DNA of 64,000 nt from Thermoplasmata archaeon (GCA_041485285.1 JBGPJF010000004.1:24468-88467); one strand, 5' to 3'. Shown: positions 5,548 to 31,602, numbered from the stretch's first letter. Numbers and translations: made by a program. The notes: generated from the sequence alone by a model not told the origin.

Positions 5548-6288
5548 CTATTCGCTCTCAATCCTCGGCGCGAGCAGGTACATGACTTGCCCGTCGCCCT
5601 CGGCGATCTTGAACTCGACACGGACGGGGTAATCATTTCCGAGGTTCAGCGTGACATCCTGCCCGGGCGGGATGGCGCGGATCATGTTGGAGAAGTAATC
5701 CAGCGAAAACAGCGATCGGGCCGTCTCCTTGGCCTCGAGCGACTTGAGCAGGTCCTTCTTGAGTTTCAGCGAGACCGAGTCCGTGTCGCCTTCGCAGGCA
5801 AGCTCGAAGCCGTCGGCAGCGACCTTGAGCGAGATGTGGTCGCTCACGGACTCCGAGGCGCGGATGCCTTGGCCGAGGTCGTCGACCGCAAGGGTGACCT
5901 TGGCGGGGTAGGTGAGGTTCGGCACTTTCGGGTCGCTCATGCCGGTCGTGTCGACAAGCGACATCCGCCTTGTGATGTTGGCGATGTTGAGGACGAGCTT
6001 GTTCTGGTCTTCGTTGTGCTCCATCGAGAGGATGTCGCCGGCCTTGGCGAGCTTCAGGACGTCCTTGAGCTTCTCGATGTCGATGCCAAGCTCGCCTGAG
6101 GTGGCCTTCAGCTCCTCGAAGGCGTCCTTGGAGAGCTTCAGTTCGACCATGGCGACGTGGGCGGGGTCGACGGCCTTGAGCGAGATGCCGTCTTGGCCAA
6201 CCCCCAGCTTGACTTCGTCGACGAGGGTCGAAACGACGTTGATGATCTCTTTCAGGATGTCCGCCTTCACTTTCGCCTTAAACGCCAT
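5548..6288 (-). CDS. pcn: DNA polymerase sliding clamp PCNA. The true start is the internal ATG at 6286-6288; the track ORF is extended upstream to 6834.
   Basis: Sequence 'MAFKAKVKADILKEIINVVSTLVDEVKLGVGQDGISLKAVDPAHVAMVELKL...' is a classic archaeal PCNA of about 246 aa. TATA-like 'gaatatgaatataagg' lies 35-45 nt upstream. Confidence 0.9.
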   Translation of the reverse strand: MAFKAKVKADILKEIINVVSTLVDEVKLGVGQDGISLKAVDPAHVAMVELKLSKDAFEELKATSGELGIDIEKLKDVLKLAKAGDILSMEHNEDQNKLVLNIANITRRMSLVDTTGMSDPKVPNLTYPAKVTLAVDDLGQGIRASESVSDHISLKVAADGFELACEGDTDSVSLKLKKDLLKSLEAKETARSLFSLDYFSNMIRAIPPGQDVTLNLGNDYPVRVEFKIAEGDGQVMYLLAPRIESE

Positions 6289-6414
6289 ATCCAGACCTCG
6301 TGACTTCGCCCCGATTGGCGAATATGAATATAAGGGGTGCGGGGGGGCGAGCGAACGCTGGGTGGGGCGAGCATTTTTGGGGGCGCTCCGCGTGGCGCGG
6401 TCGCGGTGAGTGGA

Positions 6415-6873
6415 ATGGTCGATGTTGGAACCAAGGCGCCGGACTTCACGCTGAAGGACCACGCGGGCAAGTCGGTGAAGCTTTCGGACTACAAGGGCAA
6501 GAAAGTGGTGCTGTATTTTTACCCGAAGGACTTCACGAGCGGCTGCACGAAGGAGTCGTGCGACTTCCGCGACCGGTCGGGCGAGTTCAAGAACACAGTG
6601 ATCCTCGGCGTGTCGAGCGACAGCGTGGACAGCCACGAAGACTTCCGCCACAAGTACAACCTGCCGTTCCAGCTGCTGTCGGACCCGGAGCAGGAAGTGC
6701 AGAAGAAGTATGGAGTGTGGGGGGAGAAGGCGATGTACGGGCGGAAATACATGGGGACCGTCAGGACGACGTACCTGATTGGGCCGGATGGGAAGGTTGC
6801 CAAGGCGTGGGACAGGGTCAAGGTGGATGGGCACGTGGATGAGGTGCTAGAGGCCGCAAAGGCCCTTGGGTGA
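6415..6873 (+). CDS. bcp: Thiol peroxidase / peroxiredoxin Bcp (AhpC/TSA family)
   Basis: Sequence 'APDFTLKDHAGKSVKLSDYKGKKVVLYFYPKDFTSGCTKESCDFRD' carries the peroxidatic Cys in an FTxGCT context. Start taken at the internal Met of 'MVDVGTKAPDF'. Confidence 0.85.
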   Translation: MVDVGTKAPDFTLKDHAGKSVKLSDYKGKKVVLYFYPKDFTSGCTKESCDFRDRSGEFKNTVILGVSSDSVDSHEDFRHKYNLPFQLLSDPEQEVQKKYGVWGEKAMYGRKYMGTVRTTYLIGPDGKVAKAWDRVKVDGHVDEVLEAAKALG

Positions 6874-7169
6874 GCGGGTGGGGTGAGCCCCAATTGAACG
6901 CCCCCCTCCAAATGCTCCCAAGGCCGGGACAATTGCGCGAACGCCGCGCCGTGACAGGGGCTATCCTGATCGCGACGGGCACGGGGTTCCTCTTTCTTGC
7001 CGCGTTTTTCTTCGTGGTGAGCTTCGGCACCATGTTCGACAGGTCGCAGGTTTCACAGATCTCGGGCGGGCTGATGTTCGTCGCCGGAACCGCAGGCTTC
7101 GGATTCCTCATCACGGGCATTGTTCACACCCTGAAGGGCGCCGTAACACGGAGGGACGCCGACCTTTAG
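6870..7169 (+). CDS. Small membrane protein (paralog A)
   Basis: Two TM helices. The C-terminal motif '...SQVSQISGGLMFVAGTAGFGFLITGIVHTLKGAVTRR' is shared with the ORF at 7375-7578. Confidence 0.4.
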   Translation: MSGWGEPQLNAPLQMLPRPGQLRERRAVTGAILIATGTGFLFLAAFFFVVSFGTMFDRSQVSQISGGLMFVAGTAGFGFLITGIVHTLKGAVTRRDADL

Positions 7170-7374: not shown

Positions 7375-7578
7375 ATGAGCCTATCGCTTCTCACTTGGCT
7401 CACCGGATTCGAGTTGCTGGATGCTTCGATCGATTGGTCATTCGCGCCACCCACGCCGTCTCAAGTGCTTCAAGGACAGGCGGGAGTTGCGCTCCTCTTC
7501 ATCGGCTTGATCTTGTTGCCCGTGGGGCTGGTGCACTTCTTGAGGGGAGTTGCCACACGCGCGGGCGGGGCGACTTAA
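7375..7578 (+). CDS. Small membrane protein (paralog B of 6870-7169)
   Basis: Sequence 'MSLSLLTWL...PSQVLQGQAGVALLFIGLILLPVGLVHFLRGVATRAG' aligns with the tail of paralog A (SQV.Q..G......G...GIVH.LKG..TR). Confidence 0.4.
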   Translation: MSLSLLTWLTGFELLDASIDWSFAPPTPSQVLQGQAGVALLFIGLILLPVGLVHFLRGVATRAGGAT

Positions 7579-7599
7579 ACGGTGCGAATCAACTTGAGC

Positions 7600-7700
7600 T
7601 CGGCCAATAAAGTGGGCACTAGTCCTACTCTCCCCACCGGTGCTCGCATCACACGCAGCTGGAGAGCCTGGTCTCCGGCTCATGCGGGCCCCGCGGTTGC
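7600..7700 (-). pseudogene. Degenerate third copy of the tfs 3' end (zinc-ribbon coding fragment), interrupted by in-frame stops
   Basis: Minus-strand translation gives '...PETRLSSCV*CEHRWGE*', compared with intact TFS '...PETRFYICVKCEHRWRENQ*'. The nucleotide motif 'ctc(t/c)ccaccggtgctcgca' is shared with 8075-8135 and 9222-9280. Confidence 0.45.
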
Positions 7701-7718
7701 ACGATCAGCCCTTACGGC

Positions 7719-8045
7719 TCATCGACGCCCTACTTCGGCCGCGTCGTCTTGCCCTTGGGGAGGGCCCTCGGCGCTTTTTTTTGCCGACGAGGAAACGTTT
7801 GTTCGGGGCGCTCGGCGCCGTTTCTCGGTCGGCCCTGCCCCCTCGGCCGCCCGACGGGCGTCGAGTGATGCGCGGAATTCGTTGAGCTGTTCCCAAAGCG
7901 AATCTTGGTCCGGCATGAAAGGAACCCCGTGGGCTTTCATTTCGTCGAGGAACTCCCACAAGCTGAGGCCCGCGGCGTGTGCGCACCATTGTGCGCTCGC
8001 CTCGCGGAGCTGGTACGTGCGCAGGGCGGCCTTAAGCGACATCAT
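7719..8045 (-). CDS. UPF0175-family (antitoxin-like) protein. This is an orphan and divergent copy: only the C-terminal core is present, with no cognate PIN partner.
   Basis: Sequence 'MMSLKAALRTYQLREASAQWCAHAAGLSLWEFLDEMKAHGVPFMPDQDSLWEQLNEFRASL' is about 55% identical to the core of the 8788-9136 product. The track ORF (7719-8240) extends upstream through the tfs fragment in another frame. Start taken at the tandem Met at 8045. Confidence 0.45.
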   Translation of the reverse strand: MMSLKAALRTYQLREASAQWCAHAAGLSLWEFLDEMKAHGVPFMPDQDSLWEQLNEFRASLDARRAAEGAGPTEKRRRAPRTNVSSSAKKSAEGPPQGQDDAAEVGRR

Positions 8046-8074
8046 TGGTTCAGCCTCGGCCGGCCCCGTCACGA

Positions 8075-8200
8075 TTACTGATTCTCTCTCCACCGGTGCT
8101 CGCACTTCACGCAGATGTAGAACCTCGTCTCCGGCCCGTCCGCGCCGCGCGTCTGCTGCATCATCCAGTGGGCCTCGTTGATGGAGCACTTCGTACCCAC
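8075..8200 (-). pseudogene. Second, well-preserved but start-less copy of the tfs 3' end (TFS C-terminal zinc-ribbon fragment)
   Basis: Minus-strand frame reads '(TAG)NLPPSHKVGTKCSINEAHWMMQQTRGADGPETRFYICVKCEHRWRENQ*', compared with TFS '...KTMCPKCSFNEAYWMMQQTRGADEPETRFYICVKCEHRWRENQ*'. The first Cys of the ribbon is lost and a stop sits directly upstream. About 85-90% nt identity to 9218-9345 over about 120 bp. Confidence 0.6.
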
Positions 8201-8303
8201 TTTGTGCGACGGAGGCAGATTCTACGGACGCCGCTGGCAACGCCTCTTTGCGCCCCCCATCGACAAGCGTCCATCCAAAGAGCGCACCGGCCGGCCGGAG
8301 CGT

Positions 8304-8810
8304 TCACCTGCGCGCCGCCTTCTCGCCCATCGCGACCAGGTCAAGGAAAAGCGCCGTGCTGATATGATAATCGAGTGCGAGGAGCTTGTCGAGCAGCGCC
8401 CGGAATTGGCCAAGTTCAATTCGGCCCAAAGCCACGTTGTCAAGGAGCACGAAGGGCGTCGATCGGATGGGCAAGCCGAGGTGCTTCGCCGCGCGGATTG
8501 CGTCGCCGTCGTCGATCACAGCGGTCGCGCCGGAGACCGCCCCGGCAAGGGCGATGACGCTGAGTTCGCCAGGGCCCAACACCGGCGGGGGGAGGCGGAG
8601 AGGAGGGGGTTCTCGGACCTCGATGGTGCGGGCGTCGATGAGCCGGCGAACGGCCAATGCTTCGCGGTAGCCCTTGCCCATCCCCGCTTCCACTTCGGCC
8701 AGCACCTGCGGCGTCGTGAGGATGGGGCGGAAGATACCGAGCGCGTCTAGGGTGCCGAGCTTGGCCATGAAGATCAGCGGCGACGCGTTAACGACGGCGG
8801 CGGCCATGGG
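8304..8810 (-). CDS. PIN-like nuclease domain protein (COG2405/DUF3368-type), probable toxin of a UPF0175 toxin-antitoxin pair
   Basis: Sequence 'MAAAVVNASPLIFMAKLGTLDAL...GELSVIALA...AVIDDGDAIRAAKHLGLPIRSTPFVLLD' has the DUF3368/PIN-like organisation. Its start (8810) overlaps the 3' end of the upstream UPF0175 gene (8788) by about 22 nt. Confidence 0.6.
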   Translation of the reverse strand, partial: PMAAAVVNASPLIFMAKLGTLDALGIFRPILTTPQVLAEVEAGMGKGYREALAVRRLIDARTIEVREPPPLRLPPPVLGPGELSVIALAGAVSGATAVIDDGDAIRAAKHLGLPIRSTPFVLLDNVALGRIELGQFRALLDKLLALDYHISTALFLDLVAMGEKAARR

Positions 8811-9136
8811 TGTGCTCCTTTTCCAATTTCTCGCGGAACTCGGCGAGCTGCTCGCGCATAAGGTCTTCGTCCGTCCGGAAGGGGACGCCACGCGCTTTCA
8901 ATTCGTCGAGAAACTCCCAGAGGCTGATGCCCGCCTGGTGGGCGGCTCCCCCGAAGCTGGCCTCCCCACGCTGGTACTGGAGCACTGCCTCGTCCGTGAG
9001 CACCTCGCGCACGCCCTTGTCGAGAGCCCGCCGTATCAGCGAGGACCGCTCCACCTTGAGGCGCTTGGCCGCCTCGGTGAGACGGTCCAGATCCTCGGCG
9101 GGGATCCGGATGGTCGTTATGCGCGCGGCTGCCACG
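8788..9136 (-). CDS. UPF0175-family antitoxin-like protein (ribbon-helix-helix-like N-terminus plus UPF0175 core)
   Basis: Sequence 'ITTIRIPAEDLDRLTEAAKRLKVERSSLIRRALDKGVREVLTDEAVLQYQRGEASFGGAAHQAGISLWEFLDELKARGVPF' matches the family. Putative GTG start at 9134-9136 lies about 24 nt downstream of an AT-rich TATA-like box ('gaattaata', plus strand 9157-9166). The track ORF is extended to 9282, into tfs. Confidence 0.6.
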
Positions 9137-9156
9137 GCGAATACGTACCTGTCTAC

Positions 9157-9166
9157 CGTATTAATT
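9157..9166 (-). promoter_or_regulatory. TATA-box-like element for the UPF0175/PIN operon, probably driving a leaderless transcript
   Basis: AT-rich 'AATTAATA' (minus-strand sense) in otherwise GC-rich DNA, about 24 nt upstream of the GTG start. Confidence 0.35.
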
Positions 9167-9217
9167 CTATCCTCGACTGCTCCGCCCGCAGGGGGCGCGC
9201 AACGATCGGGAGGTCGC

Positions 9218-9550
9218 CTATTGATTCTCTCTCCACCGGTGCTCGCACTTGACGCAGATGTAGAACCTCGTCTCCGGCTCATCGGCGCCCCGCGTCTGCT
9301 GCATCATCCAGTAGGCCTCGTTGAAGCTGCACTTGGGGCACATCGTCTTCGTTTTGGGAAGGATCCCCGGCGCATTCTTGTCGACGACGAGGCGCGCCTT
9401 CTCATTTTTCAGCGAGCGGGTCTTGTTCAGGTCGACCTCGGCCTTCGTGCCGGCCGTCTGGTGGCCGCACTTGCGGCAGACCATATGGCCGGCCTGGGGG
9501 AACATCAGCGATTTGCAGTTTGGACAAAACAGCTGAAGCGGCCTCCCCAT
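9218..9550 (-). CDS. tfs: Transcription factor S (TFS; RpoM-like transcript cleavage factor)
   Basis: N-terminal Zn ribbon 'CPNCKSLM...CRKCGH'. C-terminal TFIIS-type Zn ribbon 'CPKCSFNEAYWMMQQTRGADEPETRFYICVKCEHRW' with the acidic DE loop. Size 110 aa. Confidence 0.85.
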   Translation of the reverse strand: MGRPLQLFCPNCKSLMFPQAGHMVCRKCGHQTAGTKAEVDLNKTRSLKNEKARLVVDKNAPGILPKTKTMCPKCSFNEAYWMMQQTRGADEPETRFYICVKCEHRWRENQ

Positions 9551-9611
9551 TCGCGCTCACGCTGACGCGCGCACTTAAAGATTCGGTGCGTGGTGAGCGC
9601 GCGGCGCGCGC

Positions 9612-12224
9612 TCACTTCGGCGCATCGTCGCTCTTGTCGGCCCCGTCGTCGCCGCCCGCATCGCCCTCGCCCTCGGGCTCGTCGTCGCCTTCGCCCTCTT
9701 CGCCGGGCGGCGGGGCCGTCTCTTCGACCGCGCGGTATTCGCCGATCTCGGCCTCCGTTTCAAGGAGGCGCGCCACGCCGATCACACGGTCGCCTTCGTC
9801 GATGCGGATGACGCGGACGCCCTGCGTCGCGCGCCCGAGCACCGAGATTTCGGCGACCTTCGTGCGGATCATGATGCCTGACTTGGTGGTCACGAGGATC
9901 TGGTCGGCCTCCTCGATGCGGCGGATGGCAACGACGGGTCCGCCCTTGTCGGTGACCTTCATGTTCTTCACGCCGCCGGCGCCGCGGTTGGTCTTGCGGT
10001 ACGCCGCCACGGGCGAGCGCTTCCCGTAGCCCTGCTCGGTGATCGAGAGCAGCGTGTCGGCTTCCTTGAGCACGGCCGTGCCGATGACCTCGTCCCCCGC
10101 CTTGAGCCGAATCCCGCGGACGCCGTGGGCGTTGCGCCCCATCGCGCGCGCCTTCCTGGCTTCGAAGCGCGCGGCCTGCCCGAGCTTGGTGGCGATCATG
10201 ATCTCGTCGTCCTCCATGCACAGCCGCACATCGACGATGCGCTCGCCCTCGTCAAGGACCGTCGCGATAATCCCCGTGACCCGGGGGTTCGAAAACTCAT
10301 TGAGCGCCGTGCGCTTGATGGTGCCGCGGTTCGTGGTGAAAATGAGGAACTTGCCCTCCTCGAACTTCTCTACGGGGATGTGGGCCGCAATGGCCTCGCC
10401 CTGCTCCAGGCGCGGCAGGAGGTTGATGATGGGGAGACCCTTGGCTTGCCGCGTCCCTTCGGGAATCTGGAACGCCTTCAACCAATAGGCCCGGCCCTTC
10501 GAGGTGAAGAACATCAGGAAGTTGTGGTTCTTCACCGTGACAATCGACTCGATGAAATCGAGTTCCTTCGTCGTGGCCGCGATGCGGCCCTTCCCGCCGC
10601 GCTTCTGCGAGCGGTAGGCGTCGGGCGTCTGCCGCTTGATGTACCCCTCGTGCGAGATGGTCACGACGACCTCGACATTGGGCACGAGGTCTTCGAGCGA
10701 GACCTCCGCCAGGTCGTCGACGATCTGCGTGCGCCTTTCGTCGCCGAAGCGGTCCTTCAGCTCGGCGAGGTCGGCCTTGATGATTGCGAGCACCTCCTTG
10801 CGGTCCGAGAGGATCTTCTCGAGCCGCTGGATGAGCTTCTGGACGTCCGAGAGCTCCTGCTTGAGTTCCGTGATTTCGAGGTTCGTAAGCTTGCGCAGCG
10901 GCAGCTTGAGGATCTCGCGCGATTGGATCTCCGTGAAGAAGAAGTGGGAGATGAGGCTCTTCTCGGCCGCGTCGGCGTCCTTGCTCGCGCGGATGACCTT
11001 GATGACCGCATCGATCTGCTCGACGGCCTTGACGAGGCCCTCGAGGACATGCGCGCGGTCGCGGGCCTTGTTGAGGTCGAACTGCGTGCGCTTGGTGATG
11101 ACTACCTCGCGGAACTCGAGGAAGCGCGCCATCATCTGGCGCAGGGGCAGCACCTGCGGCTGGCCCTCGACGAGCGCCAGGTTGATCGCGCCGAAGGTGG
11201 CCTGCAGCTCCGTGTGCTTGTAGAGCTGGTTGAGGATGATCTCCGGGAAGACATCGCGGCGCAGTTCGATGACGATGCGCATGCCTTCCTTGTCGGACTC
11301 GTCGCGCAGGTCGGTGATCCCTTCGATCTTGCGGGCCTTTACGAGCTCCGCGATCTGCTCGAGGATCTTCGACTTGAGGACGGCGTAGGGGATCTCGTCG
11401 ACGACGATGCGGTTCTTGTCCTTCTCCATCGGCTCGATGTGCGTCTTGGCACGGACACGCATCTGGCCGCGGCCGGTGGTGTAGGCCTCGGCGATGCCGG
11501 CCCGCCCGTAGATGATGCCGCCGGTGGGGAAGTCGGGCCCGGGGATGATCTTGAAGAGCTCGTGGTCGGGCAGTTCCGGGTTGTCGATGAGCGCGGTGAA
11601 GCCATCGCAGAGCTCGGACATGTTGTGGGGAGGGATGTTCGTGGCCATCCCCACGGCGATGCCCTGCGAGCCGTTGAGGAGCAGGTTGGGCGCCTTGGCC
11701 GGGAGCACATCGGGCTCCTTCAGCGTCCCGTCGAAGTTGTCGCGCATCGGGACGGTGTCTTTGTCGATGTCCGCGAGCAGTTCGTCGGCCAGCTTGGTGA
11801 GCCGGGCCTCCGTGTAACGCATCGCCGCAGCGCTGTCCCCGTCGATGGAGCCGAAGTTGCCCTGGCCGTCGACGAGCGGGTAGCGCAGCGCGAAGGCCTG
11901 CGCCATGCGCACGAGCGCGTCGTAGACGGAGAGGTCGCCGTGCGGGTGGTATTTGCCGAGGACCTCTCCGACGATCCTCGCGCACTTCTTGTACGACCGG
12001 CTGGAGCCGAGCGAAAGCTCGTTCATGGCGTGCATGATGCGGCGGTGGACGGGCTTCAGGCCATCGCGGACATCGGGCAACGCTCGCCCGACGATGACGG
12101 ACATGGAGTAGTCGATGTACGACTCCTTCATCTCGGCCGTGAGCACGCGCGGGCGCACGATGAGGGCAAAGGGCGGGAGCGTCGCCTCGGGGCGCTTCTC
12201 GGGCGGAGGCGTTTCGTCAGCCAC
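9612..12224 (-). CDS. gyrA: DNA gyrase subunit A
   Basis: 870 aa. Motifs '[22 protein letters not shown]', active-site 'AMRYTEARL', and the GyrA-box region; C-terminal beta-pinwheel repeats; acidic tail. Confidence 0.95.
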
Positions 12225-31402: not shown

Positions 31403-31456
31403 GACGATTCCCGTTGCGCGGCTCCGCCTCCACGAGGCGGCCTGGCTCAATTCCGT

Positions 31457-31528
31457 GCGGCTATAGTCTAGCGGTCAGGACTGGAGCTTCCCAAGCTCTA
31501 AACCCGGGTTCAAATCCCGGTGGCCGCA
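31457..31528 (+). tRNA. tRNA-Gly (anticodon CCC), no encoded CCA
   Basis: Cloverleaf by hand. Acceptor GCGGCTA/TGGCCGC plus discriminator A. D-stem AGTC/GACT. Anticodon stem GGAGC/GCTCT with loop TTCCCAA. T-arm CCGGG-TTCAAAT-CCCGG. Confidence 0.8.
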
Positions 31529-31602
31529 TTCCCTCTCCCCACGCGCACCGCGCGCCTCGCGAAAACGGAAACTATTTGGGCGGATGCCCGCCTGGCATTC
31601 GC

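Follow-up and report, generated by a model that had tools for sequence, protein, structure and literature searches.

We analyzed a stretch of 64,000 nucleotides from an uncultured soil archaeon of the Thermoplasmata (GCA_041485285.1 JBGPJF010000004.1:24468-88467; hereafter the window, with positions counted from its first letter), in which tfs, the gene of transcription factor S (TFS), is followed by two further copies of its own 3′ end that are interleaved with toxin–antitoxin (TA) genes. The tfs region is probably a set of nested insertion scars, formed by the serial single-crossover (Campbell-type) insertion of cassettes of approximately 1 kb that carried TA genes only. The site just 3′ of tfs would thereby be a previously unreported recombination hot spot for small UPF0175/PIN cassettes in a Thermoplasmata clade. 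The evidence comprises the three copies themselves, a slot behind tfs whose content varies between relatives, a loss of homology past the stop codon of tfs, colinearity with one relative (L017; loci of relatives are numbered with the prefix L) and an allele-like second copy, from which we infer the single crossover and the enzyme behind it.

How TA modules move between genomes is poorly understood, and they are mostly called mobile because of their patchy distribution. At the tfs locus, the end products of such movement appear to be preserved at single-gene resolution, with an intact gene end, a 91% copy and a 72% copy as the scars of two successive events.

Three copies of the tfs 3′ end

The product of the intact gene passed the NCBIfam model TIGR01384 (TFS_arch) with 94.5 bits against a cutoff of 64.75, matched Pfam Zn_ribbon_TFIIS with an E-value of 9e-20, carries the acidic loop RGADEPET, and is 98% identical to TFS of L014, the closest relative. 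All three copies lie on the minus strand in the same orientation, and each reaches the stop codon. Within repeat family D1 (9219-9334, 8076-8191 and 7620-7735), identities to the reference copy were 91% and 70%. Copy 2 (8075-8191) matched the tfs end (9218-9334) with 91% nucleotide identity over 116 nt, and the longer repeat family D2, which represents copy 3 (7619-7780 against 9218-9379), gave 72% over 162 nt. Stretches of perfect identity of 22-29 nt occur inside these repeats. Apart from tfs itself, a tblastn search with TFS had only two matches below an E-value of 0.3 in the 64-kb window: residues 64-110 matched copy 2 (8078-8218) with an E-value of 2e-23, and residues 58-108 matched copy 3 (7628-7780) with one of 1e-11. 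The similarity of the copies far exceeds chance.

The three 3′ ends that a preliminary description of this DNA had proposed are therefore real, and the translations quoted there were correct. Copy 2 is an open reading frame (ORF) of 41 codons that starts with GTG, is preceded by a TAG and has lost the first cysteine, and its catalytic DE has been altered to DG; copy 3 is broken by three in-frame stops. The first ~27 nt of the longer copy 2 match (8192-8218, tfs codons 64-72) are only ~48% identical to tfs, a doubtful residual similarity, and the firm 5′ edge of copy 2 was therefore placed near 8191. A further extension upstream of codon 64, suggested by resemblances to 'RSL' and 'AKRR', was rejected, as the spacing does not fit. 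The convergent gene at 7375-7578 has its stop 40 nt from copy 3, and at empty sites the intact tfs shows the same convergent geometry, being 29 nt from the downstream gene in L002 and overlapping it in L003. As the whole arrangement recurs with 99.99-100% identity in contigs of five other metagenome samples (L101-L103, L105, L106), it is not an assembly artefact.

The fragments are not full-length, as had been stated, and span only residues ~64-110 (copy 2) and ~58-110 (copy 3). In Sulfolobales, full-length TFS paralogues without the acidic loop are RNA polymerase inhibitors, and NCBIfam holds a model of this TFS4 type (NF047723), against which the intact TFS scored 39 bits at a cutoff of 120. 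A TFS4-type protein is a full-length paralogue with both domains, which neither fragment could encode. With this precedent in mind, a retention of the fragments for a function may be considered, either as a mini zinc-ribbon peptide in the secondary channel of RNA polymerase or as a regulatory or terminator element of the TA genes. The intact 41-codon ORF of copy 2, its few amino acid changes and the synonymous excess described below would fit such a role, which we nevertheless regard as highly improbable: copy 2 is devoid of one of the four zinc-binding cysteines, of the N-terminal domain and of a recognizable promoter; copy 3 and the fragments of L010 and L014 carry stops or a lost stop codon; and fragment length is not conserved, with L001 and L017 having no fragment at all. 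Furthermore, an Rfam scan of the whole window found nothing in the tfs region, its sole match being a tRNA-Gly at 31457-31528 (31456-31529 according to ARAGORN). A functional peptide of 29 amino acids from copy 2, as considered in the preliminary description, is unlikely. The 41-amino-acid query retrieved no other short TFS-end ORFs from a set of 5.8 billion proteins, for which it is probably too short. With 57 bits against Pfam Zn_ribbon_TFIIS (cutoff 21), the copy 2 ORF would automatically be called a zinc-ribbon protein, and caution is advisable in the annotation of such pseudogene fragments.

Occupancy of the slot behind tfs in relatives

The relatives are uncultured Thermoplasmata. A TFS scan with one genome per species led to four contigs of metagenome-assembled genomes (MAGs), and protein look-ups together with a metagenome scan added about a dozen relative contigs. 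The gene order gyrB-gyrA-tfs-slot-bcp-PCNA-primase was kept in all of them, with a variable content of the slot, so that the arrangement in the window is not a conserved ancestral feature. An antitoxin combining a ribbon-helix-helix (RHH) and a UPF0175 domain, accompanied by a DUF3368 PIN toxin, occupies the slot in six lineages (L001, L009, L010-L013, L014/L015, L097 and the window), and six lineages are without TA.

The slot contains nothing in L004, a gap of ~650 nt with neither TA gene nor tfs fragment in L019, and a small convergent membrane-protein gene only in L002, L003/L020/L021 and L022. L017 holds an orphan UPF0175 gene alone, and L001 the TA pair alone. In L009, the pair is followed by a tfs fragment that begins at codon 44 and is cut by the contig end, in L010-L013 by a fragment of codons 29-110 with one stop, in L014/L015 by codons 82-110, and in L097 possibly by a fragment as well. 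The window contains a double arrangement of TA pair, copy 2, orphan and copy 3. A 5′-truncated tfs fragment stands behind the TA pair in at least four of the six filled lineages and was never seen without the pair. In a self-search of 91 tfs loci, additional tfs pieces were confined to TA-bearing contigs, with none in the six TA-free lineages or among ~75 more distant tfs loci.

Every fragment is truncated at its 5′ side, keeps the stop-codon end and adjoins the ancestral convergent neighbour, and the fragments of L010 and L014 share the tight convergent geometry of copy 3 with the downstream gene. The 5′ ends differ by lineage (codons 29, 44, 58, ~64-73 and 82), as do the lengths of the tfs repeats (87, ~117-144, ~160, at least 100, and 246 nt), a variation that could stem from erosion or from independent joints.

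The distribution bears on the possibility that one ancient insertion, by which the ancestor of the clade had a TA pair and a long tfs fragment behind tfs, was inherited vertically, with the fragments being eroded or lost and their similarity to the neighbouring tfs being kept by gene conversion. With ~70% mutual identity, the tfs-linked PIN proteins of the window, L001, L009, L010 and L097 group into a single clade, and the fragment lengths can be ordered into a series (82, 67+, 51, 47 and 29 codons, then none), as erosion could give. However, the six empty-site lineages are interspersed, including L002 with a tfs end ~96% identical to that of the TA-bearing L097. The closest host, L014 (GyrA 94% identical), has the most divergent cassette (PIN 60%, antitoxin 72%), whereas the cassettes of the more distant L001, L009 and L010 are closer to that of the window (PIN 70-71%, antitoxin 79-81%); by these identities, TA and host phylogenies disagree. 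The window moreover holds two different cassettes, and gene conversion would leave neither seven synonymous differences nor a sharp 5′ edge in copy 2. Vertical inheritance of a single insertion is therefore considered quite unlikely.

Besides the fragments, the copy number of tfs varies at this locus, as in L014 (2039-2371; also L015:1670-1999) gyrA and the orthologous tfs are separated by a further full-length tfs paralogue that is absent from the window. It is 62% identical to the window TFS, has the acidic loop RKADEAPT and is equipped with its own promoter-like box, CCTTAAGTG. A different case is presented by L023 (983-1368), where the tfs 3′ end is 99% identical to that of L022 and ~12 codons of the N-terminal zinc ribbon are lost (frameshifted ORF pair). 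This tfs adjoins a short-chain dehydrogenase/enoyl-reductase-like gene, not gyrA, and is either a pseudogene at another locus or part of a chimeric contig.

Probable insertion with a replacement gene end

Where filled and empty sites can be compared, homology ends with the stop codon of tfs. L097 and the empty site of L002 share ~96% identity in the tfs end up to this codon, and their sequences are unrelated beyond it. The sliding identity between the window and L014 showed no clear step within tfs and dropped only at the stop codon. Within the window, copy 2, the short intergenic region and the orphan are colinear with the intact tfs end, intergenic region and orphan of L017 (80% over 351 nt), and the present tfs end together with the TA pair aligns with L001 (80%). 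Taken together, these two colinearities identify an L001-like unit upstream of an L017-like one, in which the former gene end has stayed next to its former neighbour. Together with the empty or differently filled sites and the break at the stop codon, they uphold the serial integration scars at the tfs 3′ end that the preliminary description had deemed probable.

The differences between tfs and copy 2 look like those between two once-functional alleles. Ten codons differ, 7 of them synonymously and 3 non-synonymously, and the differences include an AGC/TCC serine switch, with the TCC/TCG state being used in the functional tfs of L004 and L019. In a simulation of neutral fragment decay, seven or more synonymous codons occurred with P = 0.0003, or with P = 0.005 if the functional copy was allowed to drift synonymously too. 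Most of the divergence between tfs and copy 2 hence dates from a time when each end was still functional and the two resided in different genomes. A similar but weaker tendency is seen in the L014 fragment (5:5; P 0.016 and 0.12).

These observations suggest the following course of events. Each incoming cassette would be joined to a piece of tfs 3′ coding sequence, and a single crossover of this piece with the resident tfs would rebuild the gene with the incoming 3′ end, so that the cassette lands directly behind the rebuilt gene. The previous 3′ end would be displaced downstream as a 5′-truncated, promoterless fragment and would then decay, and repetition would stack the units with the oldest copy furthest from tfs. 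In the window, a first event would have inserted a UPF0175 cassette, which is now the orphan, and left copy 3 beside the ancestral convergent neighbour. In a second event, a cassette of ~1.1 kb with the RHH-UPF0175 and PIN genes would have arrived from a related lineage, and copy 2 would have stayed behind, joined to the orphan. What moves would be the TA pair itself and not the stump of a large element, and post-segregational killing by the pair would plausibly favour retention of the insert, judging by known type II TA systems.

With regards to the enzyme, we favour host homologous recombination, by which circles of ~1 kb would be excised between the flanking repeats and re-inserted in a related tfs, given repeats that are long, of lineage-dependent length (87-246 nt) and not accompanied by an integrase. 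The main variant would be an integrase acting in trans, as for the cis-mobilizable elements (CIMEs) of bacteria. Host recombination on a captured gene-end handle, if true, would be a very simple route for the spread of selfish genes in archaea. We tentatively put forward, as a possibility below even chances, that the UPF0175/PIN pair with its captured tfs 3′ piece is a self-sufficient, integrase-free mobile cassette whose retention is enforced by the TA pair; with the piece of a conserved housekeeping gene as a portable homology handle, it would then be a selfish element reduced to the minimum, independent of any recombinase of its own, and would account for TA spread among related archaea.

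The repeated order of a tfs piece followed by a UPF0175 gene (families D1 and D3) may also be read without any horizontal input, as two in-place tandem duplications of a segment containing the tfs 3′ end, the antitoxin and possibly the toxin, followed by uneven decay of the extra copies. Such a history, which the preliminary description had offered as nested segmental duplication, agrees with the uniform GC content and with the observation that no tfs resembles a fragment more closely than the one in the same genome. It does not, however, account for parts of different age, since the two antitoxins share 59% of amino acids and 73% of nucleotides, against 91% for the adjoining tfs pieces. The two units have separate orthologues (L001 for tfs with the TA pair, L017 for tfs with the orphan), the array of the form A-B-A-B′-A ends in a tfs copy and not in cargo, and no second TA follows the fragment in L010, in L014 or at the distal end of the window. 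Moreover, a synonymous excess is unlikely for a duplicate without function (P 0.005 or less), and in-place duplication is accordingly rated very unlikely.

Several points weigh against serial single-crossover insertion. The crossover is deduced from its end products only, as neither an excised circle nor a free episome nor a donor genome was found. Although both hold a cassette, L001 and L017 are devoid of a tfs fragment, which calls for secondary deletions; these are plausible, as both are also without the membrane-protein genes. Fragment 5′ ends and spacers differ by lineage, where a single family of circles predicts conserved joints, and the joints were either eroded or each made independently by an illegitimate event. 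The present tfs end of the window is closer to the L014 end than copy 2 is, and either of the two tfs ends of the window could be the native one. No direct repeats of at least 25 nt bracket the pair at the non-tfs TA loci (L006, L008, L016, L098 and L100) or in L001 and L017, so that duplication of the upstream gene end is not general for this TA family, which can also move otherwise. Lastly, all genomes are metagenome assemblies, and several key contigs measure only 1-1.5 kb.

Search for an integrase and for free forms

No integrase or recombinase was present in the slot in any of the ~15 contigs from at least 12 lineages, and precomputed Pfam calls contained no integrase within 6 kb on either side of the slot in the window locus, in line with the initial observation that none is present. 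A scan of IMG/VR with a TFS alignment resulted in 99 pattern matches, of which 0 were confirmed, and INPHARED/GenBank phages gave no tfs-end match; both collections are poor in soil Thermoplasmata elements, which makes these weak negatives. Matches in PLSDB were full-length tfs genes on haloarchaeal megaplasmids only and are irrelevant here. A free form with a tfs 3′ piece as attP, such as the circular or episomal forms that the preliminary description had suggested looking for, was thus not found in IMG/VR, INPHARED or PLSDB, again a weak negative.

Classical site-specific integration would involve two integrase-bearing elements, proviruses or integrative plasmids with a tfs-3′ attP, that integrated in succession and lost everything but the TA genes, which persisted through their addictive effect. 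Tyrosine recombinases of both archaea and bacteria do typically leave repeats of the target gene's 3′ end, rebuild that gene, use the site again and give rise to tandem arrays (PMC6563490; PMC5704250). The direct repeats of the window hold the 3′ end of the target gene and reconstitute tfs, empty sites exist in relatives (L002, L003, L004, L019 and L022), homology breaks at the stop codon (L097 against L002), and the stretches of perfect identity in the repeats could serve as a core. With a repeat-flanked element devoid of integration and transfer genes, the structure of a CIME is present as well.

However, neither an integrase nor any other element gene was found in the slots or within 6 kb of the window slot, and all six filled sites hold the same two-gene unit of ~1 kb with the same promoter, which independent decay would not yield. 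The event that left copy 2 is young (91% identity, three amino acid changes), yet its insert was already restricted to the TA genes. The repeats of 87-246 nt are variable in length, in comparison to crenarchaeal att sites of 29-69 bp (PMC6563490), and no tfs-like piece was found in IMG/VR or the GenBank phages. We therefore regard site-specific integration followed by loss as unlikely, and the inserts are not well described as the minimal remnants of larger integrase-bearing elements that they were first taken for. An insertion by a transposon or casposon was rejected, since no inverted repeats flank either insert and the duplications are 117-162 nt long.

The two cassettes

The antitoxin of cassette 1 matched Pfam UPF0175 with 41.4 bits (cutoff 27.9) and RHH_1 with 27.3 bits (cutoff 20.5). 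Scoring above the gathering threshold and encoded directly upstream of the toxin gene, it belongs to the UPF0175 (COG2886) antitoxins of type II TA systems. The gene was also called in L101, and the protein is 81% identical to its L001 orthologue. The start/stop overlap with the toxin gene was verified, its length being corrected from 22 to 20 nt. The TATA box noted upstream of the TA genes was likewise recovered as ATAGAATTAATA, ~30 nt upstream of the GTG start, from which a leaderless or near-leaderless transcript would probably arise. Its motif, ATAGAATTAATACG, is kept upstream of the antitoxin in all six tfs-linked lineages and occurs in similar form at non-tfs loci, and the 50-70 nt that separate this box from the tfs stop are not conserved between lineages. 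This conservation of a TATA-like box suggests that ATAGAATTAATA acts as a promoter.

The toxin scored below the gathering threshold for Pfam PF11848 (DUF3368; E 0.13, 12.6 bits against a cutoff of 27.3), so that the family name given in the preliminary description is not borne out by the protein's own score, while its antitoxin and the PIN-like nature of the toxin were. All 21 toxin homologues (21/21) carry a precomputed PF11848 hit of unstated strength. An AlphaFold2 model of the toxin (pLDDT 94.4, pTM 0.90) retrieved the PIN domains 1o4w (AF0591), 2mdt (SSO1118) and 3ix7 as top Foldseek matches, with a probability of 1.00 and E-values of 1e-4 to 5e-4, and the predicted fold is that of a PIN domain. 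Of these structures, 2mdt is a solved member of the COG2405/DUF3368 group, and UPF0175 occurs solely beside COG2405 (PMC5499597). Pairs of COG2886 and PIN proteins constitute a predicted TA family in archaea and cyanobacteria (PMC2701414).

In the PIN site, E39, E82 and D100/D101 are conserved. The first acidic position (motif VV-D/N-ASPLIF) is occupied by Asn in the window protein and in most tfs-linked relatives, and by Asp in several other members of the family. A nuclease with Asn at this position may be attenuated or inactive. Growth inhibition by the toxin and its neutralisation by the antitoxin would be expected of a type II TA pair.

The spacer between the toxin and copy 2 (8192-8303) has no similarity to other fetched loci except the identical contigs, and the spacers of L009, L010 and L014 are unrelated to it and to one another. 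When the spacers (8201-8303, 7781-7870, 7560-7625 and their counterparts in L009, L010 and L014) were compared with every fetched locus by BLAST for a donor context, only chance matches resulted.

Cassette 2 consists of the orphan UPF0175 copy without a partner, as previously described. Its Pfam score of 26.7 bits is just under the cutoff of 27.9, its conservation is limited to approximately the first 65 codons, and the tail of the ORF overlaps copy 3 in another frame. The identities of 59% and 73% quoted above refer to the UPF0175 part of the cassette 1 antitoxin (family D3). The orthologue in L017 lies directly behind the intact tfs.

The same TA family is found at unrelated loci without tfs pieces, among them L008 from the same MAG as the empty-site contig L002, which indicates that the family moves. 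At L008:3361-4530 (contig JBGPNV010000024.1), it shares an island with HicB, VapBC and an IS66 transposase. An identical offset of 983 nt separates the copies in two short repeat families of L008 (3011/3994 and 3520/4503), which may point to a degenerate second copy of the antitoxin downstream of the toxin gene, like the orphan of the window. Another TA-rich island, in L006 (1-706 and 5843-7273), comprises a second UPF0175/DUF3368 pair, a HEPN/nucleotidyltransferase and HicA.

Relation to known systems

Integration into the 3′-distal part of a protein gene, reconstitution of that gene and tandem reuse of the site are established for both archaea and bacteria. In streptococci, elements related to ICESt1 and ICESt3 provide examples of CIMEs and of tandem accretion at a protein gene's 3′ end (Pavlovic et al. 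2004, reviewed in PMC5704250). CIMEs are recognised as decayed integrative and conjugative elements (ICEs) or integrative and mobilizable elements (IMEs), need a related integrase and have a short, fixed att core. In contrast, the tfs cassettes carry no trace of a parent element or integrase, their cargo is always the same TA pair, their repeats are 87-246 nt long and vary by lineage, and their host is an archaeon.

Archaeal elements bordered by partial duplicates of their target gene, including the 3′-distal part of protein genes, and arranged in tandem arrays were reported in a survey of Thaumarchaeota (PMC6563490), and 'gene capture' at crenarchaeal tRNA genes was described by She et al. 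(cited in PMC6563490). The tfs inserts share with them the direct repeats of the target gene, the empty sites in relatives, the stop codon supplied by the insert and the reuse of the site. However, such integrated elements measure kilobases to tens of kilobases, encode integrases or Cas1 and have att or target-site duplications of 13-69 bp (PMC6563490), whereas the tfs inserts are ~0.3-1.1 kb in size and contain TA genes only. In the literature found, tfs is not among the reported integration targets.

The cargo itself corresponds to the type II TA pairs of COG2886 (UPF0175) and COG2405 (DUF3368 PIN) described by Makarova et al. (2009, PMC2701414) and Matelska et al. (2017, PMC5499597). Shared features are the upstream and overlapping antitoxin gene, the UPF0175 domain, the predicted PIN fold with 2mdt among the best matches, the enrichment in archaea and the mobility. 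The antitoxin of the window differs by an extra N-terminal RHH domain, and the first acidic PIN residue is mostly Asn in this clade. We found no description of such pairs being repeatedly associated with the end of one housekeeping gene and its fragments.

The closest counterpart in layout is a TA module of Microcystis aeruginosa PCC 7806, which lies between two 152-bp direct repeats downstream of an orthocaspase gene (PMC7935541). It likewise is a two-gene, strain-variable unit with long direct repeats and no recombinase, directly downstream of a host gene. However, the Microcystis repeats are identical and intergenic, contain inverted repeats and do not duplicate the end of the adjacent gene, and they are not described as part of a nested series. 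New in the present case are tfs as the target, a recurrent cargo of TA genes without a recombinase, long and variable gene-end repeats, and a two-step record within one genome.

Layout of the locus

All features of the region and its flanks are summarized in Table 1.

Table 1. Features of the tfs region and its flanks, with positions in the window.
Feature	Position	Strand	Remarks
gyrA	9612-12224	-	conserved upstream flank of the slot; 88-94% amino acid identity and same position in L001, L002, L003, L014, L017
Intact tfs (transcription factor S, 110 aa)	9218-9550	-	repeat copy 1 is its last 116-162 nt (9218-9379)
Intergenic stretch, 82 nt, tfs stop to antitoxin start	9136-9217	-	TATA-like box ATAGAATTAATA at 9159-9170
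Cassette 1 antitoxin, RHH (CopG-like)-UPF0175 (COG2886) fusion, 115 aa	8788-9135	-	GTG start; Pfam
Cassette 1 toxin, PIN-fold, COG2405/DUF3368 type, 167 aa	8304-8807	-	ATG start; predicted fold
Spacer of ~110 nt, toxin stop to copy 2, taken as distal end of cassette 1	8192-8303	-	
tfs 3′ copy 2, codons 73-110 and stop	8075-8191, possibly to 8218	-	putative displaced former tfs end
Cassette 2: orphan UPF0175 antitoxin-like gene, no RHH domain, no toxin partner	7719-8045	-	
tfs 3′ copy 3, codons ~58-110, three in-frame stops	7619-7780	-	putative oldest displaced end, pseudogene fragment
Two small predicted membrane-protein ORFs	6870-7169 and 7375-7578	+	convergent with tfs; ancestral downstream neighbours of the slot
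bcp (peroxiredoxin)	6415-6873	+	conserved downstream flank of the slot; Pfam AhpC-TSA E 6e-44; synteny in all relatives
PCNA	5548-6300	-	beyond bcp; Pfam PCNA_N/PCNA_C

The composition profile revealed no anomaly, with a uniform GC content across the cassettes. This has no bearing on a foreign origin; uniform GC content is expected of related donors. The two small membrane-protein genes beyond the copies, which had been described as paralogous, are present, but their paralogy is weak (E 5e-4), and the ORF at 7375-7578 is uncalled in public records. In L002, L003 and L010, this position is likewise taken by small convergent membrane-protein genes.

Three minor sequence elements were found next to these genes. 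A GC-rich perfect hairpin (GTGAGCGCGC...GCGCGCTCAC) at 9593-9615 overlaps the gyrA stop codon, and just downstream of it, at ~9575-9583 on the minus strand, lies the promoter-like box of tfs, CTTTAAGTG. On the plus strand, a run of eight T at 7776-7783 marks the 5′ edge of copy 3, ~200 nt past the ORF at 7375-7578, for which it could represent an archaeal oligo-T terminator.

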